In this document: in pieces, positions 1,865 to 35,788 of the stretch
Layout of the letters: the number at the start of each line of letters is the position of its first letter
Position numbering within the stretch: position 1 is the first letter of the stretch
Source: Candidatus Campbellbacteria bacterium CG22_combo_CG10-13_8_21_14_all_36_13
GTDB taxonomy: Bacteria > Patescibacteriota > Minisyncoccia > Phycocordibacterales > PCTT01
Direction: 5' to 3'
Length of the DNA stretch: 35,788 bases
NCBI GenBank assembly: GCA_002771585.1
Contig: PCTT01000027.1
Span: 1 to 35,788 of the forward strand
Made by a program: the position numbers and the translations under genes
Notes under the pieces: model-generated
What the model was told of the DNA's origin: nothing
The model's database searches: none
The model's input: the letters and a program-made list of their open reading frames with translations, nothing else

Positions 1865-1877
1865 AGTTTCATTTAGT

Positions 1878-2110
1878 GCGGGATACGGAAATCCCTGCCT
1901 GTCGACAGAAAGGGAACTTCGTGATTATTGCTTGGTCCCAGAACATTTTTGCTATCTTGTGCGAGTACCGAGAATCGGTCAGCTTCGCTCGATATTTTAG
2001 TTCACTTCGCTCCTAAAATATCTGAGCTACCCGACCCGCGCTCGGCGATACCGTGCTTCGCACAGGCTTCGCATCGCCTCGGTTCGATTCTCGTACCGCA
2101 GTCATCCACA
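1878..2110 (-). pseudogene. Degenerate duplicate of the tRNA-Gly unit: tRNA fragments with palindromic hairpins in place of the T-arm and inside a D-arm
   Basis: 1931-1978 repeats 2184-2231 (47/48 nt). 1878-1888 repeats 2151-2161. No complete cloverleaf can be drawn. See findings. Confidence 0.4.
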
Positions 2111-2150: not shown

Positions 2151-2371
2151 TGCGGGATACGAGAATCGAACTCGTGTCTCAACCTTGGTCCCAGAACATT
2201 TTTGCTATTTTGTGCGAGTACCGAGAATCGGACTCGGGTTTCAAGCTTGGGAAGCTTGCGTCATACCACTAAACTACACTCGCAAAAACGTACGGGATTC
2301 TCAAAAAATATTGTCGCATAGCTCCTTATTTTTTGGAAGAAGGTCACGTCATACCACTAAACTAATCCCGC
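2151..2371 (-). tRNA. Interrupted tRNA-Gly-like gene: 5' half 2340-2371, 3' half 2151-2186, separated by 153 nt
   Basis: Minus strand 5' half: GCGGGAT TA GTTT AGTGGTA TGAC G TGACC TT. 3' half: AA GGTTG AGAC ACGAG TTCGATT CTCGT ATCCCGC A. Acceptor stem has 7 perfect bp, the T-loop is canonical, and the anticodon stem TGACC/GGTTG pairs with two G-U. The body is paralogous to the inner Gly gene. Confidence 0.45.
2213..2283 (-). tRNA. tRNA-Gly(CCC)-like, 71 nt, no encoded CCA, non-canonical T-loop
   Basis: Hand-folded cloverleaf: GCGAGTG TA GTTT AGTGGTA TGAC G CAAGC TTCCCAA GCTTG AAAC CCGAG TCCGATT CTCGG TACTCGC A. The T-loop reads TCC instead of the near-universal TTC (position 55 is C). Confidence 0.6.
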
Positions 2372-2745
2372 GTAAATATATTTTTTATCTTCTGCCAAAT
2401 ACCTTTTTTTTCGTTTACATTAATGTCCTCATCATTAGAAGTTTTTTCAACAACAACCATAACTCTCTCACCTTCTTTAGCAACATTAAACATATCGCGT
2501 ATCTCCATCTCTATCCCTTTTGGTGTAGCAAGTGATTTAAGTTTAGATTCAAGAAATTCTTTTCTATCCTGTATTTTATTAAACTCATTAGTTACAACCT
2601 CTAATGTTTCACTTGTGCTTTGTTCTTTTTCATAAAGATTAAGAACCGCCTTACCAGAAAAAAATATCATTATAATCAAAACAACCAAAGATGTCTTTGA
2701 GTATAAAAATTTTTCGTATGTTTTTCCACCCTTATCAAAAGACAT
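2362..2745 (-). CDS. FtsB/DivIC-like septum formation initiator (single N-terminal TM plus coiled coil)
   Basis: 127 aa with one TM (LVVLIIMIFFSG), then a coiled coil. The motif GIEMEIRDMFNVAKEGERVMVV is typical of the DivIC/FtsB family. The 3' end overlaps the tRNA 5' half by about 10 nt. Confidence 0.55.
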   Translation of the reverse strand: MSFDKGGKTYEKFLYSKTSLVVLIIMIFFSGKAVLNLYEKEQSTSETLEVVTNEFNKIQDRKEFLESKLKSLATPKGIEMEIRDMFNVAKEGERVMVVVEKTSNDEDINVNEKKGIWQKIKNIFTRD

Positions 2746-2883: not shown

Positions 2884-4674
2884 CTAGTTTGAATCTCTCA
2901 TAACCTTCATAAAGACTTCCTGTGGAATATTTGCCTTGGCAAATTCTTGCATTTTCTTCTTACCCTTCTTTTGTTTCTCCCTAAGCTTCATCTTTCTTGT
3001 AATATCACCACCGTATAGATAATCAGTAACATCTTTTTTCATAGCAGATATAGTCTTTGATGACATTATTCTGCCTTGTGCCATTGCTTGTATTTTTGTT
3101 TTTGTTAATTGTTTTGGTAGAAGTGTAAATAATTTTTCAACAATTTTCTTTGCTTCTTCTTCAGCTCTTCTACGAGACACAACTCTAGAAAAAGCAGGTA
3201 TTACATCCTCCGCAACCAATACCTCAAGCAAAACCACATCAGCCAAAGACCACTCATCATTTATTTCATAGGATAGTGAAGCATACCCTGAAGAAACACG
3301 CTTTATATCATCAAAAAAATTCCTCATAAGCTCACGAAGGGGCATCAGTATTGTAAATTCTGTACGACCGTCACCAAAAAGATGCGTGTCGACGATAGAT
3401 CCTTCATGATCATAAAGTATCTGTATTAGAGAATCTATATACTCTGCTGGAGTAATAAGCCTTATAGAAGTCCAGCGCTCTCTTATACTAGATATTTCAC
3501 CATATGGTGGAAAAAGTGCTGGTGAATAAACAAGTTTTGTATTGTTTTTTTTGTCAGTTACCTCATACGTAATACTTGGGGTAGTAACAACTAAATCAAT
3601 ATTAAATTCCCTTCTTAATCTTTCTGTAATTATCTCTAGATGCAACATGCCAAGAAAACCACACCTAAAACCACGACCAAGCACACCACTAGACTCCTCC
3701 TCAAATGAAAGTGAACCATCAGAAAGCTTTAGTCTCTCCAATGACTGTCTTAATACCGTAAAATCATCCTGGCTCTCTGGGAAAACACTAGCCCATATAA
3801 CTGGTTTAGGGTCCTGATATCCTGGAAGAGCATCTGTATTTTTATTACTCAAAACAATAGTATCACCCACCCTTGCAATACCAGGCTCTTTTATACCAGT
3901 AACAATATATCCAATCTGGCCATTTGATAATAAATCAGTGGGGGTCTCCTCTGGCCTAAAAATACCCACTTCACTTGCAACGAATGATTTGCCAGCAATT
4001 TTAAATGAAAGGCTTGAGCCTTTTTTAACCTCACCCTCTACTATCCTTGTATAAACCACAACACCGCGGTGATTTGAATATTCAAAATCAAAAACAAGCG
4101 CCCTTAGATCTTCTTCTGGTTTTTGTTTTGGTGGCGGAACCTTATCTATAATAGAATCTATCAAAAGAGTAACTCCTTCTCCTGTTTTACCAGACGTACA
4201 AATGACATCATTTTTCTCACAACCCGTAACTTCTATTATTTCCTCTATAACATCATCAACCCTAGCTATAGGAGAATCTATCTTTGACAGAACTGGTATT
4301 ATCTTTAAACCAATTTTTTTTGCCATATCAAGCGTTGTGAATGTTTGGGCTTGAACCCCTTGTGTTGCATCAACAAGCAATATCGCACCCTCCACAGCCT
4401 TGAGCGCACGCGACACTTCATAAGAAAAATCTATATGGCCTGGCGTGTCAATAAGATTAAGTTTATATTTGATACCATCTTTCTGATAATCCATTGTAAC
4501 GGGCGCCATTTTTATTGTAATTCCCCTCTCTCGTTCAAGTTCCATCTTATCAAGAACCTGTGCTTTCATTTTTCTTTTTTCTATGGTGCCAGTAACCTCG
4601 AGCATTCTATCTGCTAGAGTAGATTTACCATGGTCAATATGTGCAATAATGCTAAAGTTTCTTATGTTGTTCAT
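2884..4674 (-). CDS. lepA: Translation elongation factor 4 (LepA)
   Basis: 596 aa. Has the G1 motif AHIDHGKST, DTPGH, and a conserved LepA C-terminal region (ISAMKKDVTDYLYGGDITRKMKL). Confidence 0.97.
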   Translation of the reverse strand: MNNIRNFSIIAHIDHGKSTLADRMLEVTGTIEKRKMKAQVLDKMELERERGITIKMAPVTMDYQKDGIKYKLNLIDTPGHIDFSYEVSRALKAVEGAILLVDATQGVQAQTFTTLDMAKKIGLKIIPVLSKIDSPIARVDDVIEEIIEVTGCEKNDVICTSGKTGEGVTLLIDSIIDKVPPPKQKPEEDLRALVFDFEYSNHRGVVVYTRIVEGEVKKGSSLSFKIAGKSFVASEVGIFRPEETPTDLLSNGQIGYIVTGIKEPGIARVGDTIVLSNKNTDALPGYQDPKPVIWASVFPESQDDFTVLRQSLERLKLSDGSLSFEEESSGVLGRGFRCGFLGMLHLEIITERLRREFNIDLVVTTPSITYEVTDKKNNTKLVYSPALFPPYGEISSIRERWTSIRLITPAEYIDSLIQILYDHEGSIVDTHLFGDGRTEFTILMPLRELMRNFFDDIKRVSSGYASLSYEINDEWSLADVVLLEVLVAEDVIPAFSRVVSRRRAEEEAKKIVEKLFTLLPKQLTKTKIQAMAQGRIMSSKTISAMKKDVTDYLYGGDITRKMKLREKQKKGKKKMQEFAKANIPQEVFMKVMRDSN

Positions 4675-4798
4675 AAAATAATCTCAATCTATATTGTAAT
4701 GAGTCTCGCCCCGTAGTGAACCGAGCTTGTCGAGGTTCTACTACCGGGGTGGTCAATATGGGCAATAATGCTAAAGTTTCTGATGTTGTTCATAAAAT
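4631..4798. repeat. 49-nt direct duplication of the lepA start region (4631-4679 and 4750-4798, 47/49 identical) flanking a 70-nt insert with a GC-rich hairpin
   Basis: Direct comparison of the two copies. Hairpin arms are 4709-4722 and 4734-4749. Confidence 0.9.
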
Positions 4799-9100: not shown

Positions 9101-10244
9101 GGTTTTGGTATCGGACAATCGCGATGTCATCGCTTCGCGCTGACGCGCGGACTAACGCAGATATAGACGCAGACCTACGCAGAAATCGAATATCAGTTTT
9201 CCGCGTTAGTCCGCGTTTAGTCCGCAAGATCAGCGCGCCAATGCGAAGCAGTGACGTTGAGGAAAGTCCGGACACACGCCCGTCGTACCTCACTGCGTTC
9301 GGTACTAAGTCAAAAGTCTATAAAGCCCATAATGTCAAAAGTCACAAACTTTCGACTTTATAGACATTCGACTTTGAACTAAAGTGCCGAGCTTAGCGAG
9401 GTGCGACGGACAGCATGGTGGTGCCCTACATTTTCACTTTGTGAAAATCGGGTCCGAACAATCTGTTTAAGGATTGTTTTAGGAGGTAATACCCATCGAC
9501 CAGTGCAGCGCACTGGAAATTCGAAATCCGAAATTCTAAATTCGAAACTTTTTAAGTTTTAATATTTTAAATATTAGGCTAAAACCACACGGGATTATTT
9601 TATATTAAAATAATCCCGTGTGGTTCGCCCGACAAAAATCTCGAAGGATTTTTGTTTAGGGACTTAAATATTGCCCGCCCGGACGAATGTCCCCCGCCAG
9701 AATCCAGCCCGAAAGATTCATTCTGGCGGGGACTCTGTCGGGCTGGATTCGGACAGGTTTCATATTTAGATATTCGTGCTTCGTGCTTCCAATGCGTTGC
9801 ATTGGTTAGAGGTGCGAGCAGAGACGCCCAAATCGAAAGAAGAGGGATTCCCTAGTGGAATAGTTCCATGGCAACATGGGTGCTAAAACAAAATGTTTTT
9901 AACATTTTGTTCGCACGAACATTTTGTTTACAAAATGTTCTAGTGAAACGGCAAAATCCTCACTTGTGTGCAAGACCGCGCCCCAGTGCAGCGCACTGGT
10001 GGAGAGTCGCTTGAGCATGTTGGTAACAACATGCCTAGATAAATGATTGTCGTCTGTCGTACCTCACTGCGTTCGATACGATAATTCTAAATTTAAAGTT
10101 TTGAATTTTGAATGAATTTTAAATGAATTAATTTAAAATTAAAACATTCGAAATTGAATGGAAATTTTAAATTAGAAATTTTAAATTCATCCGAGCTTAG
10201 CGAGGTGCGACAGATACAGAATCCGGCTTATAGGTACCAAAACC
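9101..10244 (+). ncRNA. rnpB: RNase P RNA (bacterial type A-like core) expanded to about 1144 nt by multiple insertions
   Basis: GAGGAAAGTCCGG at 9259-9271. ACAGAATCCGGCTTA at 10216-10230. P1 pairing GGTTTTGGTATC (9101-9112) with GGTACCAAAACC (10233-10244). GCTTGAG-CATGTTGGTAACAACATG-CCTAGATAAATGATTGTC (about 10009-10052) aligns with the E. coli M1 P15/P18/P2 region. Confidence 0.8.
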
Positions 10245-10276
10245 TTGTCCCGCATACTGCGGAGACAATTTATATG

Positions 10277-10304
10277 AAAAAACTCGCTTAATTGCGAGTT
10301 TTTT
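10277..10304. terminator. Bidirectional intrinsic terminator between rnpB (+) and the RNR gene (-)
   Basis: AAAAAACTCGC-ttaatt-GCGAGTTTTTT: stem flanked by an A-run and a T-run. Confidence 0.7.
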
Positions 10305-10356
10305 CATTGTTTTTAAACTTTATAGACTTTCGACTTTTTTGACTTTATAGATTAAT

Positions 10357-12660
10357 CTAAATTTCACATGCTCCACCAACACAAGCAAGCTCTTTTGCCC
10401 CTATTGTTTGATCATCAAGCTCATATATAACAAGCTTAGAAAAATCTAGCTTACTAAGCTCTGCGCTCCTTCTTTCAAATTCTTCTTTTGTTATCTCCTC
10501 ATAAGGCGCTAGTTGATAAACATGCTCATTCCTTGGTAAAAATGACAAACCACCAACAATATCCCAGTTTTCATAAACAAAATTTGCAACAGCAAGCCAC
10601 TCATCTGGCCCAACATAAACAGTTGCAGAAGGATTATGTTCTGTAAAGTGCACTTTTAGTCTTTTCCACTCATTTAAGAAATCAATTGCTGATACTTGAT
10701 CTTTAAAAACAGCCCCCTTTGGTGCTTTTATTGGGAATTCAAGTACCATTGTGGTCGCATTCGAAGTAGAGTAACCAACCTCTGGATGAATTGGCACACC
10801 TTGTTCACGTGCTAGTTTTAGAAGAGGGTCGTTAACACTGATCCTAACCCTTCTAATAAAGTACGGAGCATACCATGGATGCATACCAGACCCAACACCA
10901 AGTAATTGCCCTGAATTTCCATGTGGTTTTACACAAGTTACAGCGGTTGATACATTAATTCCTATTTTTTTGGCATACTTACGGTTTACTATAAGAGCTT
11001 CGTTTCTTAACGACTCCAAGACTTTATCATCTCTAACAATCTTGTTGTCAAAATAACCAGTTAAAGAAACCCCCAACAAAGCTTCTTCATCACAATTCTT
11101 TTTCCAGTCTTTTGAAATATATTTAAAATCTGTAAGAGAAGCCTGATATGTACCCAGCATTGTAGCAAGTCGCATTTTCCTTTTTAAGCTTTTTTCTGTG
11201 TCTTCGGGACGAATCACAATACTTGTAAGATTACAAAACTGTCTAGATTTTAGATAAATCTCACCACAAGGATTCATGCCTGGTTGTTTTTCATACTTTA
11301 GATTCTCCCACCGGCGAGCTGGTAACTGTTTCTCCAAACCTCCCCTGTTGTATATTCCGCGCTCCCCAGACCCAGAGCTTACCAGTGCCGACCACTCCTC
11401 CAAAAACTCTGTAGCGGTCGGTTTTGCCTCATATACAGCAGAGTTATTGGCCATACTACGTTGTCCATTTGTTTGCCAAAAGGCACCCTTCTTTGCATCT
11501 CTCAAATCTACATCATCAAGAGCAGAAAGTGATATTAATGCACTTCTTCTTACCCCACCGGCAACCACAATAAGGCCAATTTGACAAATTATATCGTGCA
11601 TATCAAGTGTTGAAAGACGACGCCCTTGCTTTGTAAGCATCTTCTTTTTTGTAAATTTCATCAACTCCTGAAGCGGTGCTGGTCCAGACGCCCTTCCTCC
11701 CATAGTTAGAAGTCTATCTCCGGCGGGTCTGATTTTTGAATAATCAATTTCAACATCCTTACCAGAAGACCATGCCTCACAAGCACCAACAAAAGCATCA
11801 CACCAGCCCTCCTTGCTATCCTCTACTACAATAGTTGGAGCTTTCTCTCCGGTTTGCTTTTGTATTTGTGGAAATTGCTCTACATTCTCTGGCTCAACCG
11901 AATAACCACATCCAGCACCACACATAGACACATACATTATATCTGCAAGATCTTTCCATCTTGTTGGTGCAATATAGGCGCAGTTGTATGCACACACATT
12001 TGTTGCCCTACAAGCCTTTCCAGCAGACCACAAAAGTCTCATTGATGGGCAAACTTCTTGTTTTAATATTCCCTCCCTAACCTCATCATATTCTTTTGCA
12101 GAAAACTTATTACCAAGATTCTCTTTCATAAAGTCCATAAACCTATCTATAGACTCAATCCATGTCTCTCTCCTACCCAAATCATCCCTCCATCTTGAAT
12201 AAAATTGATAGAATATAAATTCCTGATAAGGGGTCTTGAAATACTTACTTGCCTCTTCTATCTTCTGAACAACCTCTGGTTTTACCCTTAATTCGTTTCC
12301 ACGGACCTTTGCTCTTTCGTTTCTATACAAAATAAATGCTTTTGCCGCTTTAACATAATTACCAAGAATAAGCTCCTTCTCTACAGCGTCCTGTATACCC
12401 TCAACTGAAGGAACGAAGTTTTTAAATCTTTTACTTATACGTACCAAGTCTGAAAGCACCCTATTAGCCACAAGCTCCGCCTCTTCTATTGAGCCCTCTT
12501 CTGCCGCATTCATCGCTTTATATGTAGCGTTTGTAACTTTACTAAGATCAAAAGGAACTATAGAACCATCACGTTTTAGTATTCTCTTAACAAAGCTATT
12601 TTCAATCTTTTTTTTACCTTTTTTTGTGTTTTTAGGCGACTTTTGAGCTGTTTTTGGCAT
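10357..12660 (-). CDS. nrdJ: Adenosylcobalamin-dependent (class II) ribonucleotide reductase, monomeric RTPR-like, with N-terminal ATP-cone
   Basis: 767 aa. ATP-cone-like N-terminus (VKRILKRDGSIVPFDLSKVTNATYKA). C-terminal redox pair CVGGACEI resembles the CEGGAC tail of the Lactobacillus leichmannii enzyme. Internal NPCGEI active-site motif. Confidence 0.8.
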   Translation of the reverse strand: MPKTAQKSPKNTKKGKKKIENSFVKRILKRDGSIVPFDLSKVTNATYKAMNAAEEGSIEEAELVANRVLSDLVRISKRFKNFVPSVEGIQDAVEKELILGNYVKAAKAFILYRNERAKVRGNELRVKPEVVQKIEEASKYFKTPYQEFIFYQFYSRWRDDLGRRETWIESIDRFMDFMKENLGNKFSAKEYDEVREGILKQEVCPSMRLLWSAGKACRATNVCAYNCAYIAPTRWKDLADIMYVSMCGAGCGYSVEPENVEQFPQIQKQTGEKAPTIVVEDSKEGWCDAFVGACEAWSSGKDVEIDYSKIRPAGDRLLTMGGRASGPAPLQELMKFTKKKMLTKQGRRLSTLDMHDIICQIGLIVVAGGVRRSALISLSALDDVDLRDAKKGAFWQTNGQRSMANNSAVYEAKPTATEFLEEWSALVSSGSGERGIYNRGGLEKQLPARRWENLKYEKQPGMNPCGEIYLKSRQFCNLTSIVIRPEDTEKSLKRKMRLATMLGTYQASLTDFKYISKDWKKNCDEEALLGVSLTGYFDNKIVRDDKVLESLRNEALIVNRKYAKKIGINVSTAVTCVKPHGNSGQLLGVGSGMHPWYAPYFIRRVRISVNDPLLKLAREQGVPIHPEVGYSTSNATTMVLEFPIKAPKGAVFKDQVSAIDFLNEWKRLKVHFTEHNPSATVYVGPDEWLAVANFVYENWDIVGGLSFLPRNEHVYQLAPYEEITKEEFERRSAELSKLDFSKLVIYELDDQTIGAKELACVGGACEI

Positions 12661-17212: not shown

Positions 17213-17346
17213 AAAAAATATTATTTAGTCTTGTGTACTAAAAAATTCAAAACCTACCTACCTTTTCCCGCCTTAATGATGTGTGTTAGATAGAGTTCAA
17301 ACGTATTGCGGACAAAAACCGTTCTCATAAATCAGTGCGGTGTTTT

Positions 17347-17397
17347 TGGAGACGAGGTTCGAACTCGTGGTGATTTGACTCACACACACTTTCTCCC
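17347..17397 (-). other. tRNA-like remnant: canonical T-arm (ACGAG TTCGAAC CTCGT) and short acceptor-like pairing, no D-arm
   Basis: Minus strand: GGGAGAAAGTGTGTGTGAGTCAAATCACCACGAGTTCGAACCTCGTCTCCA. An outer GTGCGG/CCGCAC pairing (17335-17340 / 17396-17401) is possible. No full cloverleaf can be drawn. Confidence 0.3.
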
Positions 17398-17405
17398 GCA
17401 CAAAG

Positions 17406-17490
17406 CGGAGGCGGCGAGATTCGAACTCGCGATACCTTGCGGTATGCCACCTTTCCAAGGTGGTGGAATAAACCACTATCCGACGCCTCC
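17406..17490 (-). tRNA. tRNA-Ser(GGA), 85 nt, class II with long variable arm, no encoded CCA
   Basis: Hand fold: GGAGGCG TC GGAT AGTGGTTTA TTCC A CCACC TTGGAAA GGTGG C-ATACC-GCAA-GGTAT-C GCGAG TTCGAAT CTCGC CGCCTCC G. Confidence 0.85.
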
Positions 17491-17598
17491 GCTTTGTGAA
17501 GGGATTACAATTTACAAACAATCGCTTCGATCCTTGTGTAAATTAGGAACAATATCGCGCCTTAAAGCGCTCAGTCACTCTTTCGTATTTATAAAAAT

Positions 17599-22386: not shown

Positions 22387-22454
22387 ATAAATAAGTTCGT
22401 AAAGTTTATAAAGTCAAAAGTCCCTAAAGTAAAAATTTTTCCATGTATCAAATA

Positions 22455-22478
22455 AATATTACGATATATCGTAATATT
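22455..22478. repeat. Perfect 24-bp palindrome AATATTACGATATATCGTAATATT in a divergent promoter region (candidate operator)
   Basis: Self-complementary by inspection. The 18-bp core recurs at 35604-35621. Confidence 0.9.
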
Positions 22479-22485
22479 ATAGAAT

Positions 22486-22520: not shown

Positions 22521-22621
22521 CCAATTATATCAACAAAAGCCGATTTATACCAAAAACTCGTCCATTCTGTTTCAACTTTATGGGCTTTTAACTTTGTACT
22601 TTATAGACTTTATGGACTTTA

Positions 22622-22677
22622 CCTGTCTGCCGCCTGCCTGCCCTGCCTACCGGCAGGCAGGCGGCAGGCGGGACAGG
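22622..22677. repeat. GC-rich 21-bp-stem hairpin inserted in a GACTTTAT repeat array, flanked by the direct repeat GGACTTTA
   Basis: CCTGTC+TGCCGCCTGCCTGCC / GGCAGGCAGGCGGCA+(GGCGG bulge)+GACAGG. Direct repeats at 22614-22621 and 22683-22690. Confidence 0.85.
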
Positions 22678-32120: not shown

Positions 32121-32228
32121 GTTTTAAATTTTGAATTTTATTCATTATGATTTGTTTCGTATTCTTGCCCTGTACCGAAACTTGTTTCTGGTTCTGGGGT
32201 CGTACTTCGAATTTCGAGTTTTAAATCT
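32121..32228. repeat. Divergent copy of the intergenic repeat module (AATTTTGA heptads, GC-richer insert 32166-32203, CGTACTTCGAATTTCGAG)
   Basis: Shares TTTGTTTCG..., CTTCGAATTTCG motifs with copies A, B and C. Confidence 0.6.
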
Positions 32229-32256
32229 ATATATACTTTTGACTTTAAGGACTTTA

Positions 32257-32601
32257 TCAACTTTTTGACTCTATCAATTTGTTTCCAATAAAACTAAGCA
32301 CAGCGAGCACAAGTGCGCCGATTAGCGCGATAGTGAAAGATTCAATAGCAAAACCTGTAACAAAAGATGAAATAAACCAAAGCATCAGCGCATTAATCAC
32401 AAAAGAGAATAATCCAAGGGTTAAAAGATGTATCGGTAGTGTAAGAATGGTAATTATTGGCTTTATTGTGATATTTATCACACCAAAAATAAGAGCGACT
32501 ATTACAGCTATGTAAAAGCTCTCTACAAAAAATCCGGGTATTAACTCCGTCACCACAAGCAGTGCTAATGCTGTGACCAATAACTTACTTAAAATTTTCA
32601 T
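32257..32601 (-). CDS. DUF360 / phage holin family 4-like (YvlD-type) membrane protein
   Basis: 114 aa with 4 TM segments. LLVTALALLVVTELIPGF...NITIKPIITILTLPIHLLTLGLFSFVINALML is the typical pattern. Confidence 0.75.
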   Translation of the reverse strand: MKILSKLLVTALALLVVTELIPGFFVESFYIAVIVALIFGVINITIKPIITILTLPIHLLTLGLFSFVINALMLWFISSFVTGFAIESFTIALIGALVLAVLSFIGNKLIESKS

Positions 32602-32771: not shown

Positions 32772-32835
32772 TTCGACTTTTTACTTTATAAACTTTCGAC
32801 TTTATGGACTTTATAGACTTTATGACTTTACGACT
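32772..32835. repeat. Array of GACTTTAT-family repeats (about 9-10 nt period) running into the secA stop region
   Basis: TTCGACTTTTTACTTTATAAACTTTCGACTTTATGGACTTTATAGACTTTATGACTTTACGACTC. The same family occurs at 9305-9378, 10317-10350, 22397-22430, 22574-22621, 32021-32060 and 32235-32275. Confidence 0.85.
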
Positions 32836-35360
32836 CTTGTCACTTTCCACACACCTTCTTCTACAAGCTCTTCTGCCTTCTTGTATTTCATAACTCTTGT
32901 TTCTTTTCCATTACTTATCTCCACTTTATCATTTCTACCAATCTTATCATCCCGATTTACAACAGTTTGAACTTTTCCATCACCAAAGCTTGTTTTTTCT
33001 GCAACTTCAGCTTCTTTTTTTATTGTCTGCAGACGATTTGATTCTTGCGCAAAAGAACCTTCTCCTATTCCTGAAATTACCTTAAATATTTGATCATCAA
33101 TAGATGCTTCCAGATCCTTAAACAACACAAGTCCTTCTCTTCTATATTCCACCAAAGGATCCCTCTGCCCAACAGAGCGCAAACTTACAGAAGATTTTAG
33201 ATAATCCATTGCCTCCAAGTGTTCCACCCAAAGCATATCCAAAGACTGAAGACTCACAGCACGAAATACTTCATAAAATTTATCTTCACCTAGTAGTTTT
33301 ATTTTTTCTTCAATTAAAGAAAGGTTTTCATCGCCAAGAATACTTTCCGCCATTTCTTTTAATTCGTCTCTATCACCCATCAATATACTCCTTCTCTTTG
33401 TATATATCGTGCGTCTTTGATGATTCATCACATCATCAAAATCCAAAACGTGTTTTCTTCTATCAAAGTTTAAGCCCTCTATTTTTTCTTGCGCAGACTC
33501 TAGTGACCTTGTTATAAGTTTATTTTGTATTGGTTGATCTTCTGGTATACCAAATCTACCCATCATACTTTTTACAGAATCCCCTGAAAATACTCTCATC
33601 AAATCATCTTCAAGAGAAACAAAAAACTGAGTCTCGCCAGGATCCCCTTGTCTTCCAGATCGTCCTCTTAGCTGATTATCAATTCTTCTTGCCTCATGTC
33701 GCTCTGTTCCTATTACAAAAAGCCCACCAGCATCAATCACCTTTTGTTTTGCTATAGCATCATTGTCTTCACCACCAAGCTTTATATCAACACCTCTTCC
33801 AGCCATGTTTGTAGCAATAGTTACAGCACCAACTTCTCCAGCACGAGCGATGATACTTGCCTCGTTTTCATGGTTTTTTGCGTTAAGAATATTATGTTTT
33901 ACACCCTCTTTGTCCAAAAAATCAGACAAAAGCTCATTTTTTTCTATTGAAACAGTACCAATTAGAACTGGCTGTCCTGCTTCATTTAATTCTTTTACTT
34001 TCTTTGCCAGAGCTCTAAATTTGCCAGACTCTGTTTGAAAAATTAAATCGTCCCTATCAATACGAGCAATTGGCTTATTTGTAGGAACTGCAATTGTGAT
34101 TAATCCATACACGCGATAAAACTCCTCCTGTGATGTCATTGCTGTACCCGTCATTCCTGCGAGTTTTTTATACATTCTGAAATAGTTTTGATAAGTAATT
34201 GAAGCAAATGTGCGAGATTCTTTTTCGAGCTTCACTCCTTCTTTTGCCTCTATTGCTTGATGAAGACCTTCTGAATATCTTCGTCCGTTCAATATCCTTC
34301 CGGTAAACTCATCCACAATCATCACCTTTCCATCTCTCACAACATATTCTTTTTCTTTTTTGTATAAAGCTTTTGCCTTTACAGCAAGCTCGAGGTGGTG
34401 GACATATCTAATTCCACCATCTGTATAAATATTTTCTATTCCAAGTTTTTTCTCTGCTTTTTCTATTCCTGAATCAGTAAGAGTGAGTGCCTTTGCTTTT
34501 TCATCTACCTCATAATCTTCTCCTTCTACAAGAATGTTTGCAATAGATGCAAATGTGCCATAAAGACTCTCAGACTCCGATGTGGGCGATGAAATAATAA
34601 GCGGTGTTCGCGCTTCGTCGATCAAAATTGAGTCTATCTCATCGATTATTGCAAAGTTTAAATCTCTTTGCCTCAAATCTTCTTCTTTATATGAAATATT
34701 GTCGCGCAAGTAGTCAAAACCAAACTCAGAGTTAGTTCCATAAGTAATATCTGCTGCATATGATTCTCTTCTTGAACATGGCTTCAAAAACTCATGCACA
34801 ACCTTGAAATACCCTTGCTCATCCCTTTCAACATCTTTTTCTTCTCCTTCTTTTGCAAAAGTCTTATCATACAAAAAAGAATCTTGTGAATTTATTACAC
34901 CAACAGAAAGACCAAGAAAGGCATAAATTTCACCCATCCATACAGCATCCCTTCGTGCCAAATAATCATTCACCGTGACAACATGCACACCCTTGCCCGA
35001 GAGAGCATTCAAGTATACGGGAAGTGTGGCAACCAAAGTCTTTCCCTCACCTGTTCTCATCTCAGAAATATTCCCATCATGCATCACAAGACCACCGATC
35101 ATTTGCACATCATAGTGTCTTTGTTTAAGTGTTCGCTTTGATGCCTCTCTCACGACAGCAAACGCCTCTGTTGATATGTCATCAAGTGTTTCTCCGGCCT
35201 CTAATCTTGCCTTAAATGCCAGTGTTTTGTTTCGAAGCTCTTCGTCAGTAAGGGCAGAGATTTCAACCTCAAAATCATTTATGACAGGAATAAGCGCCTC
35301 ATATTTAGCGAGGGCTTTTTTGTTTTGATCTCCAAATAAGTTACTAAATTTAAAAGCCAT
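32820..35360 (-). CDS. secA: Preprotein translocase ATPase SecA
   Basis: 846 aa. MRTGEGKTLVATLP Walker A, DEIDSILIDEARTPLIIS, TNMAGRGVDIKLGG. The C-terminus lacks the usual cysteine-rich zinc tail. Confidence 0.97.
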   Translation of the reverse strand: MAFKFSNLFGDQNKKALAKYEALIPVINDFEVEISALTDEELRNKTLAFKARLEAGETLDDISTEAFAVVREASKRTLKQRHYDVQMIGGLVMHDGNISEMRTGEGKTLVATLPVYLNALSGKGVHVVTVNDYLARRDAVWMGEIYAFLGLSVGVINSQDSFLYDKTFAKEGEEKDVERDEQGYFKVVHEFLKPCSRRESYAADITYGTNSEFGFDYLRDNISYKEEDLRQRDLNFAIIDEIDSILIDEARTPLIISSPTSESESLYGTFASIANILVEGEDYEVDEKAKALTLTDSGIEKAEKKLGIENIYTDGGIRYVHHLELAVKAKALYKKEKEYVVRDGKVMIVDEFTGRILNGRRYSEGLHQAIEAKEGVKLEKESRTFASITYQNYFRMYKKLAGMTGTAMTSQEEFYRVYGLITIAVPTNKPIARIDRDDLIFQTESGKFRALAKKVKELNEAGQPVLIGTVSIEKNELLSDFLDKEGVKHNILNAKNHENEASIIARAGEVGAVTIATNMAGRGVDIKLGGEDNDAIAKQKVIDAGGLFVIGTERHEARRIDNQLRGRSGRQGDPGETQFFVSLEDDLMRVFSGDSVKSMMGRFGIPEDQPIQNKLITRSLESAQEKIEGLNFDRRKHVLDFDDVMNHQRRTIYTKRRSILMGDRDELKEMAESILGDENLSLIEEKIKLLGEDKFYEVFRAVSLQSLDMLWVEHLEAMDYLKSSVSLRSVGQRDPLVEYRREGLVLFKDLEASIDDQIFKVISGIGEGSFAQESNRLQTIKKEAEVAEKTSFGDGKVQTVVNRDDKIGRNDKVEISNGKETRVMKYKKAEELVEEGVWKVTRVVKS

Positions 35361-35602
35361 AAATTAACCACATAATCTCTTATATGTCGGGTGATTATAG
35401 CATATATTAAGGCTTTTTTTAAGGAAAAATTTTTATCTAATCAATAAACTATATGTTCTTACCAAAAATTACTTTATGCGTGTGATGCAACCAAAACAAG
35501 CGCAAACATCGCAACACTTGTCCAACCTCTGGCGGATATCGTAATAATTTTTGGTATATCAATAATAACAATAGAAACTCCTACAAAATAAATTCTATTT
35601 AT

Positions 35603-35622
35603 TATTACGATATATCGTAATA
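35603..35622. repeat. Second copy of the palindrome (TATTACGATATATCGTAATA, 20 bp perfect)
   Basis: The 18-bp core is identical to 22458-22475. Confidence 0.9.
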
Positions 35623-35675
35623 TTTTCCTTAATAAAAACTAAAACAAAATTTATTATAGAAGGAGGTATAAAAAA

Positions 35676-35715
35676 CATTACGATACCTGTCCGACCTCTG
35701 GCGGATATCGTAATG
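35676..35715. repeat. Split palindrome CATTACGATA-N20-TATCGTAATG using the same half-site; the spacer carries a 21-nt direct repeat of 35525-35545
   Basis: ACCTCTGGCGGATATCGTAAT occurs at 35525-35545 and 35694-35714. Confidence 0.85.
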
Positions 35716-35788
35716 TTTTTCGGTGGTCCAACCAACGAATTAAAGTCCGAAGTTAGAAGAAACAATAACAACGACAACAATTCAAACA

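Follow-up and report, generated by a model that had tools for sequence, protein, structure and literature searches.

What is a complete tRNA gene doing inside another tRNA gene with the same anticodon? The locus that raises this question lies in contig PCTT01000027.1 of Candidatus Campbellbacteria bacterium CG22_combo_CG10-13_8_21_14_all_36_13, an ultrasmall member of the Patescibacteriota. On the minus strand of this 35,788-nt stretch, which we analyzed in its entirety and refer to as the window, a tRNA-Gly(CCC) gene is split in its anticodon loop by an insert that contains a second tRNA-Gly(CCC). The initial annotation of the locus had listed three interpretations, namely a new type of intron processed through the embedded tRNA, a disrupted gene copy, and the remnant of an insertion in the anticodon loop. 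The last two amount to a single event, which is the one that we favor because it is backed by the synteny of the resident gene, the recurrence of similar cassettes and palindromes present in a sister strain; the first gained no computed support. We put at roughly 0.6 the probability that a resident tRNA-Gly(CCC) gene was split by a mobile cassette that has no nuclease gene of its own but belongs to a family supplying a replacement tRNA-Gly, the outer halves being relics. The observations fit best with a family that targets tRNA-Gly genes across Patescibacteria and whose fuller members encode a 90-aa GIY-YIG protein upstream of the inner tRNA. The recurrence of the arrangement, together with this gene for a homing-type nuclease, points to an undescribed selfish element carrying a spare copy of the gene that it breaks.

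The outer gene is present in two parts. Its 5' part (2339-2371, minus strand, like all components of the nested unit) corresponds to tRNA positions 1-34 and comprises the 5' strand of the acceptor stem, the D-arm, the 5' strand of the anticodon stem and the loop nucleotides TTC. Its 3' part (2151-2188, tRNA positions 35-73) comprises CCAA, the 3' strand of the anticodon stem, the variable loop, the T-arm, the 3' strand of the acceptor stem and a discriminator A. Both parts were matched, outside any called tRNA, by half-tRNA profile hidden Markov models (HMMs) built from 117 Patescibacteria tRNA-Gly genes, with 32.9 bits (E = 5e-8) for the 5' half at 2339-2371 and 47.8 bits (E = 9e-13) for the 3' half at 2150-2186, which rules out a chance resemblance. 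When ARAGORN was run in intron mode on the native sequence, a check suggested by the initial annotation, it reported the inner gene alone and not the outer one, which is why the outer gene was demonstrated through spliced constructs. Joining 2371-2339 to 2188-2150 produces a 72-nt tRNA-Gly(CCC) according to ARAGORN, in line with the proposal that the outer halves form a canonical tRNA in which a Gly NCC anticodon can be reconstituted. Only one junction, located between positions 34 and 35 (TTC, insert, CCAAG), restores the loop TTCCCAA with its CCC anticodon. This unique junction sets the length of the insert at 150 nt (2338-2189) rather than the 153 nt originally given; otherwise, reading the sequence bore out the coordinates and sequences that had been described.

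The insert is made of five consecutive parts. It begins, immediately 3' of anticodon position 34, with a hairpin that we named hp1 (2298-2338), seen in both the minimum free energy and the centroid fold, in which TTCCAAAAAATA pairs with TATTTTTTGAGAA across the loop AGGAGCTATGCGACAA. This is followed by a left arm (2284-2297, TCCCGTACGTTTTT), the inner tRNA gene (2213-2283), a nine-nucleotide linker predicted to be unpaired (2204-2212, CAAAATAGC), and a right arm (2189-2203, AAAAATGTTCTGGGA) that is complementary to the left one and pairs with it around the inner tRNA. As first noticed, the inner gene is a complete cloverleaf with a CCC anticodon, called at 2212/2213-2283 on the minus strand both by ARAGORN and by the Rfam tRNA model (RF00005; 60.4 bits, E = 8e-11). 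It displays the features of glycine identity, that is, a cloverleaf with the G1-C72, C2-G71 and G3-C70 pairs and a CCC anticodon (C35, C36). Its acceptor stem is GCGAGTG/TACTCGC, and over the 18 nt of the D-arm it is indeed identical to the outer gene. The deviations from a standard tRNA are C55 instead of U55, within the previously noted T-loop TCCGATT, the equally noted G7-T66 pair, and a discriminator A; A73 is also found in the outer gene and in the intact Patescibacteria Gly(CCC) genes that were sampled with a search pattern ending in CCCGCA. Apart from the tRNA, the insert yielded no Rfam match at either gathering or permissive thresholds.

This nested arrangement is real. Over 531 nt, the region shows 100% identity among contigs that come from at least six independent assemblies and samples, which rules out an assembly artifact, and some of these contigs stop within a 48-nt repeat of the locus (described below), as assemblers are expected to. 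RNAfold assigns to 2371-2150 a free energy of -65.1 kcal/mol (z = -2.7), in a predicted fold that contains the acceptor and anticodon stems of the outer tRNA, hp1, and the arm helix flanking the inner tRNA. Both junctions are brought together at a three-way junction between the anticodon stem, hp1 and the arm helix, where TTC and CCAA are single-stranded. We looked in this fold for a bulge-helix-bulge motif, that is, two 3-nt bulges separated by a 4-bp helix, and none could be drawn, as had been anticipated. The duplex formed by the leader and trailer of the inner tRNA in the window has a predicted energy of -12.1 kcal/mol. Across loci, the corresponding pairing is stronger around nested than around solo tRNA genes, with medians of -14.75 and -7.0 kcal/mol, respectively (Mann-Whitney p = 2.5e-6).

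Evidence that such helices are selected comes from a related class of nested loci, while the class of the window itself comprises the window, the sister strain and three looser relatives (L113, L115 and L103). In the related class (L055, L029, L062, L083, L134, L111, L023 and L108; 10 rows from eight loci, one row entered with N), our alignment covered the two arms together with the hairpin ahead of TTCCCAAG. Both sides have changed in 20 of the 26 base pairs, and 97.7% of the cells are paired, whereas only 35-45% are paired in slid controls and none of 500 shuffles matches the observed value. The flanking helices of this class are therefore maintained by selection, at the level of either RNA or single-stranded DNA. 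It is a class in which a long hairpin replaces the 5' strand of the outer anticodon stem. Closer to the window, a Taylorbacteria locus (L113) shares the loop sequence and position of hp1, in a hairpin whose stem differs yet stays complementary, and homologous arms starting with CCCCG are found in all three looser relatives. Outside the inner tRNA, the insert has 79 bases, of which three are substituted between the window and its sister strain, each at a position predicted to be unpaired and two of them in the linker; this is a small sample, with a probability of about 0.05 by chance (29 of the 79 bases being unpaired).

The nested unit and the sequences that follow it fill a 497-nt gap between a divIC/ftsB-like open reading frame (ORF) and a convergent TPR gene. 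The former, identified by synteny and a Pfam match (PF04977, E = 3e-7), encodes 127 aa (2362-2745, minus strand), and its stop codon falls within the 5' part of the outer tRNA. Just 3' of the end of the outer tRNA lies a terminator-like hairpin (2112-2138; AAAACTCATGC GGAA GCATGGGTTTT), which was matched on the plus strand in a terminator scan. It is followed on the minus strand by a block of debris (1979-2106) in which an antisense copy of a tRNA T-arm and 3' end (2100-2078, inverted repeat I1) precedes hairpins with GCGAAG-type loops. Then comes a direct repeat (D1; 1931-1978, minus strand) of 48 nt, 98% identical, which consists of the final 19 nt of the inner gene, the linker, the right arm and CCAAG. 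It leads into a second, degenerate outer 3' half (1876-1930, minus strand; repeats D4 and I2) that reads CAATAATC ACGAAGTTC, a palindrome, ATTTCCGT and ATCCCGCAC, its T-loop being swollen into a near-palindrome. Positions 2106-1958 are an instance of a pattern that is common in Patescibacteria and was seen 3' of tRNA-Arg, tRNA-Gly(UCC) and tRNA-Cys genes in seven loci (L035, L036, L048, L098, L111, L090 and L087), where the tRNA is followed by a terminator hairpin, an antisense T-arm, hairpins with GCGAAG-type loops and an exact sense copy of its last 16-19 nt. Candidate origins of this pattern are a tandem-inversion duplication, an attachment-like site, or a functional hairpin. A relative whose DivIC is 52% identical (L011, 6410-6560) has a tRNA-Arg(CCT) in place of the nested tRNA-Gly, followed by a terminator and an antisense T-arm fragment (CAGGAATCGAACCGAG) that resemble the debris block of the window.

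Which of the two genes was there first? Using the 3'-terminal 23 nt of the outer gene as a pattern, we searched genomes that represented one species each and obtained 116 loci carrying this exact 3' end, nearly all from Patescibacteria by name. About 100 of these matches belong to intact tRNA-Gly(CCC) genes, of which they form the 3' end, and in dozens of genomes a divIC-like ORF ends at or inside this tRNA, as in the window. Because of this 3' end identity and divIC synteny, the outer gene is a conserved, ancestral resident, and the insert is the derived state. The acceptor stem type of the inner gene differs from that of the outer gene and is rare among the solo genes of our sample. It is, however, the type of the split outer gene in Giovannonibacteria and Harrisonbacteria loci that contain a GIY-YIG gene (see below), and this difference in type points to the inner gene having been imported rather than duplicated locally.

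The outer gene looks different in a sister strain from the same aquifer (L015/L018), which carries the same nested unit at 97-98% identity although its DivIC is 76% identical, and its coding DNA 80-86% identical, to those of the window. Its outer gene has a 31-nt near-perfect palindrome in the D-loop and a 21-nt perfect palindrome with no loop in the T-loop, and its T-stem is mismatched. A broken outer gene is therefore tolerated in this strain. Alignment to L018 indicates that its single outer 3' half is orthologous to the second, degenerate 3' half of the window. The non-tRNA portions of the insert are more conserved between the two strains than the adjoining genes, which either constraint or recent exchange would explain.

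The locus of the window is one of many. Among the matches to the 23-nt pattern, 14 fell outside any called tRNA, and several of these share the same plan, in which a 5' piece ending in the anticodon loop is followed by an arm, a whole tRNA-Gly, a complementary arm, and CAAG with the 3' piece. This plan occurs in Taylorbacteria, Sungbacteria, Nomurabacteria, Giovannonibacteria, Paceibacteria and others. A census with the half-tRNA HMMs found orphan Gly halves within 450 nt of 32 of 117 tRNA-Gly genes, on both sides in 16 cases, only downstream in 11 and only upstream in five. These orphans have a strict polarity, with 5' pieces upstream and 3' pieces downstream, to which there is a single exception. 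The point of insertion defines distinct classes, being in the anticodon loop as in the window, just past the D-arm, or in the D-loop. In many relatives both junctions carry CAAG (TTCCCAAG...CAAG), whereas the window has TTC...CCAAG and no duplication. Matched outer halves in other genomes retain complementary acceptor stems and intact T-arms. One outer half is wholly missing in L079, L139, L108 and L103, and other loci, including L023 and L111, show stacked 5' pieces or tandem units (inner 3' end, linker, outer 3' half) like the second copy in the window. The distribution is patchy, since the divIC-proximal site is mostly occupied by an intact tRNA-Gly(CCC) and is nested or flanked by fragments in about one-quarter of cases. 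With a cruder test, flanking fragments were less frequent for other isoacceptors than for Gly, in 3 of 60 tRNA-Arg(CCT) and 2 of 49 tRNA-Phe genes. A metagenome scan with the linker sequence retrieved a single contig, that of the sister strain. There is no sign of a phage origin, since scans of viral contigs were almost empty, with no double-hairpin motif (described next) and one match to the tRNA 3' end.

Some of these inserts contain a further gene. In L079 and L100, a 90-aa ORF with a Pfam GIY-YIG match (E of about 1e-13) ends inside the 5' end of the inner tRNA, and a GIY-YIG ORF lies directly upstream of an intact inner tRNA-Gly in these two loci and in L135, L137, L139 and L141. All six have a hairpin-bearing piece of a split tRNA-Gly upstream and, in several, another one downstream. 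In the last four, two of which are situated downstream of divIC, the upstream tRNA-Gly 5' piece has its anticodon loop broken by a conserved double hairpin (TCCGCC...GGCGGA, CCCGCC...GGCGGG). The complete order can be read in L137, where the outer 5' piece is followed by the double hairpin, CAAGC, the GIY-YIG ORF, a tRNA-Gly(UCC), CTGCCTTC, an identical double hairpin, and CAAGCA with the outer 3' piece. The GIY-YIG protein has more than 230 close homologs; the 120 that are listed are 63-74% identical to it, and among these listed matches the named ones are all from Patescibacteria, most of them on short contigs. GC-clamped hairpins also interrupt the D- or T-loops of orphan pieces in L100, L135, L018, L098 and L076, and in the second 3' half of the window. 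The variant form of this degenerate 3' half (CAAGCAATAATC...ATTTCCGTATCCCGCAC) recurs in one of the GIY-YIG loci (L135). The initial annotation had foreseen neither this nuclease gene in relatives, nor the wide occurrence of the arrangement, the structured insert and the second copy at 1978-1876.

How might such an element work and spread? Since no promoter-like site was found inside the insert, the nested unit is probably transcribed from the upstream operon on the divIC/ftsB-like side, and the transcript would end at the hairpin near 2138-2112. The arm helix might present the inner tRNA to the ordinary tRNA-processing enzymes, with RNase P and RNase Z freeing it to decode GGG, while the outer pieces would be by-products that are not rejoined. 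Bacteria with a tRNA-Gly(UCC) can do without tRNA-Gly(CCC), as established for Escherichia coli, which would make the latter a tolerant target. A precedent for spread exists in phages T4/T6, where the GIY-YIG nuclease SegB cleaves tRNA genes internally, at a motif of the T-loop (PMC13096335 and its reference 26), and repair of the break copies or tandemly amplifies the tRNA and segB, thereby rearranging tRNA arrays (PMC13096335). In view of this precedent, of the association with GIY-YIG genes and of the patchy distribution, we suggest that the cassettes spread through repair of nuclease-triggered breaks or through homologous recombination. The outer halves could double as homology arms, which would be the reason why they remain tRNA-like, and the split could shield the locus from being cut again. 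The hairpins that interrupt loops may likewise protect against cutting and, more speculatively, so may the TCCGATT T-loop of the inner tRNA. Recombination between similar 3' halves may have produced, as by-products, the antisense fragment and the second copy located downstream (1978-1876).

Several observations weigh against this scenario. The 35.8-kb window contains no nuclease, integrase or transposase gene detectable by Pfam or tblastn, and specifically no GIY-YIG gene by Pfam or by tblastn with two members of the family, so that the mobility of the window copy is inferred from its relatives and this copy is at most a nuclease-less derivative. Its kinship to these relatives is itself plausible more by position and shape than by sequence. 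Thus, hp1 resembles in position and shape the first hairpin of the double-hairpin module of the GIY-YIG loci, and the arms start like the second hairpin (TCCCG vs CCCG), with the tRNA sitting where the loop would be. Two stretches of the spacer (AAGGAG...ATG and a TTACGTTTT-like sequence) that we considered as remnants of the start of a GIY-YIG gene were rejected since they resemble it over too short a length. Long neutral decay would not predict what is seen in the window, where the outer halves show no damage and are able to fold into a perfect cloverleaf. The covarying helices reveal a structural selection for which a relic model alone gives no reason. Activity of the inner tRNA is uncertain, because the nearly invariant position 55 is a C, as judged from the sequence. 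No empty-site allele was present in 13 contigs of this population, and the 27% frequency of orphan halves carries a sampling bias, as the loci were retrieved with a search pattern taken from the outer 3' end.

If no dedicated mobile element were involved, neighboring or duplicated tRNA-Gly genes could have recombined locally, by template switching, tandem-inversion duplication, or slippage at hairpin-forming tRNA arms, leaving a whole gene between the halves of another along with sense and antisense debris. We regard this as unlikely, even though it would readily account for the succession of sense, antisense and sense tRNA 3' ends joined at hairpins and for the 48-nt direct repeat. The 18-nt identity of the D-arms suggests gene conversion within the locus, and similar debris follows unrelated tRNA genes, without nesting, in other Patescibacteria, which would also speak for local events. 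What such events leave unexplained is the recurrent ordered plan, the covarying arms and the hairpin at the same site in distant lineages, as well as the conserved GIY-YIG family found at that site. Moreover, the rarity of the GCGAGTG acceptor type among solo genes points to import.

The insert could instead be a true intervening sequence, which we consider improbable. One precursor would then give two tRNA-Gly(CCC) molecules, with splicing signaled by the embedded tRNA. The latter would be excised by RNase P and RNase Z while the arm helix holds the outer pieces together, the leftovers would be trimmed, possibly by an RNase III-like nuclease, and an RtcB-type ligase would join the exons, with neither splicing endonuclease nor ribozyme. 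Much of the architecture is consistent with this, since the outer halves of the window are intact and form a perfect cloverleaf through a unique junction, the fold brings the exon ends to a three-way junction, and the three substitutions relative to the sister strain spare the predicted paired positions. The flanking helices are kept by compensatory change in the related class and are systematic in nested loci, and matched outer halves elsewhere keep complementary acceptor stems and intact T-arms. It is also known that Patescibacteria have rRNA genes with numerous insertions belonging to neither the group I nor the group II introns (PMC11270868). On the other hand, the locus offers no bulge-helix-bulge and no group I/II signal at E values up to 10. 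No tRNA splicing endonuclease is, to our knowledge, known in bacteria, which counts against an intron. RtcB, the ligase for which the initial annotation had recommended a search, and EndA had no match among the 27 window ORFs scanned. As both tRNAs share the same anticodon, nothing would be gained by splicing. In the covarying class, the replacement of the 5' strand of the outer anticodon stem by a long hairpin means that no functional tRNA could be restored, one exon is missing in several relatives, and the outer tRNA of the sister strain has its T-loop turned into a zero-loop palindrome and its T-stem broken. The idea of a new intron type operating through the embedded tRNA and ligation is thus left with a low probability, which it owes to the selection on the helices in the related class and to the perfect outer halves of the window. 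If it were true, this would be the first tRNA splicing pathway in bacteria that depends on protein enzymes.

It is highly improbable that the fragments are scars of an integrase, that is, attachment-site core pieces left by an element that integrated at a tRNA-Gly attachment site and was later mostly deleted. Duplication of a tRNA 3' end downstream of a tRNA gene is the classical signature of a tyrosine-integrase attachment site, and the 48-nt repeat begins in the T-loop of the inner tRNA. Yet integration gives a complete gene followed by an orphan 3' fragment, with no orphan 5' half expected upstream; the inserts are just 100-500 nt long, and neither the window nor the relatives that we examined contain an integrase. 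Self-splicing introns were already deemed unlikely, and rightly so, since an Rfam scan of 1700-2600 at E values up to 10 gave no Intron_gpI match and no group II match, and 150 nt is short of both the usual 200 nt or more of group I introns and the 400 nt or more of ORF-less group II forms. A transposon or miniature inverted-repeat transposable element was rejected because the arms are complementary within a locus but vary and covary between loci, unlike transposase-binding ends, and an IS200/IS605-like single-strand transposon (target CAAG, end CAAG) because the arms pair with each other, with no subterminal hairpins and no TnpA.

The preferred explanation, a resident tRNA gene split by a mobile cassette that brings a replacement, has parallels in several known systems. 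The relatives of the window cassette resemble SegB in having a small GIY-YIG gene adjoining tRNA genes. However, SegB sits between intact phage tRNA genes, while the cassette sits inside a chromosomal tRNA gene, splits it and carries an isoacceptor copy. Furthermore, the protein from the Candidate Phyla Radiation has 90 aa and consists of a catalytic domain with no obvious DNA-binding domain, its cleavage activity is putative, and the window copy is devoid of the nuclease gene. Like integrative elements that target tRNA genes, the cassette invades a conserved tRNA gene, brings replacement sequence and leaves orphan fragments, but these elements supply a 3' segment only, encode an integrase, measure kilobases and leave a single 3' orphan, whereas the window cassette supplies a whole tRNA within 150 nt, has no integrase and is flanked by 5' and 3' orphans. 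In archaea, tRNA gene fragments are found beside a mobile element, and a mobile-element model of tRNA gene disruption is known (PMC3293823). Disrupted archaeal tRNAs include multi-intron, split, tri-split and permuted forms, and a tRNA-Thr disrupted by a mobile element in Caldiarchaeum. They are similarly interrupted in the anticodon loop or other loops, and complementary sequences unite their halves, but they are resolved by a splicing endonuclease at a bulge-helix-bulge, a motif that could not be drawn at the nested locus, whose host is moreover a bacterium. We know of no archaeal case in which the intervening sequence is a complete tRNA with the same anticodon. Group I introns of bacterial tRNA genes are also inserted in the anticodon loop, and some carry homing endonuclease genes, but the 150-nt insert has no catalytic core and no Intron_gpI match. 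Finally, rRNA genes of Patescibacteria have loop insertions, many of them short and ORF-less, and some that are neither group I nor group II encode GIY-YIG proteins (PMC11270868). These concern rRNA genes only, the main text not containing the word tRNA, and none was reported to carry a copy of the interrupted gene. In our full-text literature searches, we came across no report of Patescibacteria tRNA genes that are nested or flanked by fragments. In summary, homing or mobile cassettes at tRNA genes are a known kind of element, while what is new is that a whole copy of the split gene is carried, framed by selected helices.

Two other tRNA-like loci deserve mention. A metagenome-assembled genome labeled Ancylobacter novellus (L070, 5665-5780) has a 113-nt tRNA-like gene whose T-arm and acceptor 3' end are those of Patescibacteria tRNA-Gly(CCC), with a CCA end, a 26-nt hairpin in the anticodon loop and a long variable arm. 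It was called by ARAGORN in intron mode only, as "tRNA-Pyl(cta)," and no intact tRNA-Gly is nearby. In the window itself (17340-17530, minus strand), a tRNA-Ser(GGA) at 17405-17490 is framed by the complementary sequences CACAAAGC and GCTTTGTG and by CCC/GGG, and an orphan T-arm with a partial acceptor strand (ACGAGTTCGAACCTCGTCTCC, 17369-17348) lies about 40 nt 3' of it. We rejected it as a second nested gene since none of 8175 deletion constructs reconstituted an outer tRNA.

Elsewhere in the window, whose gene content and G+C content (35%) fit Campbellbacteria, a 1-kb noncoding stretch (9364-10356) has a higher G+C content (43%) and contains a GC-rich palindrome (9693-9757) as well as a sequence of 24 nt repeated at 9387 and 10191. 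It includes a partial match to class A RNase P RNA (9911-10046; 32.7 bits, for a gathering score of 100), in which 20 nt replace 172 model positions, and might represent an RNase P RNA gene that is reduced or laden with insertions. Arrays of units of about 9 nt (GACTTTATA, GACTTTCGA or GACTTTATG) are found in several intergenic regions, in both orientations and mostly upstream of genes (9313-9383, 10312-10361, 22390-22435, 22577-22625, 32221-32266 and 32778-32851), and may represent a repeated regulatory or binding motif. A 49-nt direct repeat (4631-4679 and 4750-4798, 96% identical, 119 nt apart) corresponds to a duplication of the lepA start region just upstream of lepA, where the sister strain L018 aligns twice as well. 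Two sites that lie far apart (22454-22479 and 35600-35625) share a 26-nt palindromic motif (AAATATTACGATATATCGTAATATTA), the second site being flanked by a 52-nt repeat (35504-35555 and 35673-35724, 83% identical), and the related contig L016 has a motif (attacgatatgtcgtaatatt) resembling this palindrome. A 767-aa ribonucleotide reductase ORF (10357-12660) has a good ATP-cone match and a faint catalytic barrel (Ribonuc_red_lgC, E = 2.7e-4 over 24 residues), and is either a divergent class II-like enzyme or a poorly modeled one.

These findings have consequences for how tRNA loci of Patescibacteria are read. At the level of annotation, they are a warning that tRNA finders silently skip the outer gene and its fragments. 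The family of GIY-YIG nucleases of about 90 aa gains a testable target, and the covarying helices around inner tRNAs define a structure, of RNA or of single-stranded DNA, that lends itself to direct testing. If the resident gene was indeed split by a cassette bringing its own tRNA-Gly, this would explain the abundance of half-genes at tRNA-Gly loci of Patescibacteria. It would also represent a third way for a selfish element to reside inside a gene of an essential type. Introns and inteins splice themselves out and integrative elements restore a piece of the gene, while this cassette would bring along a whole spare copy.

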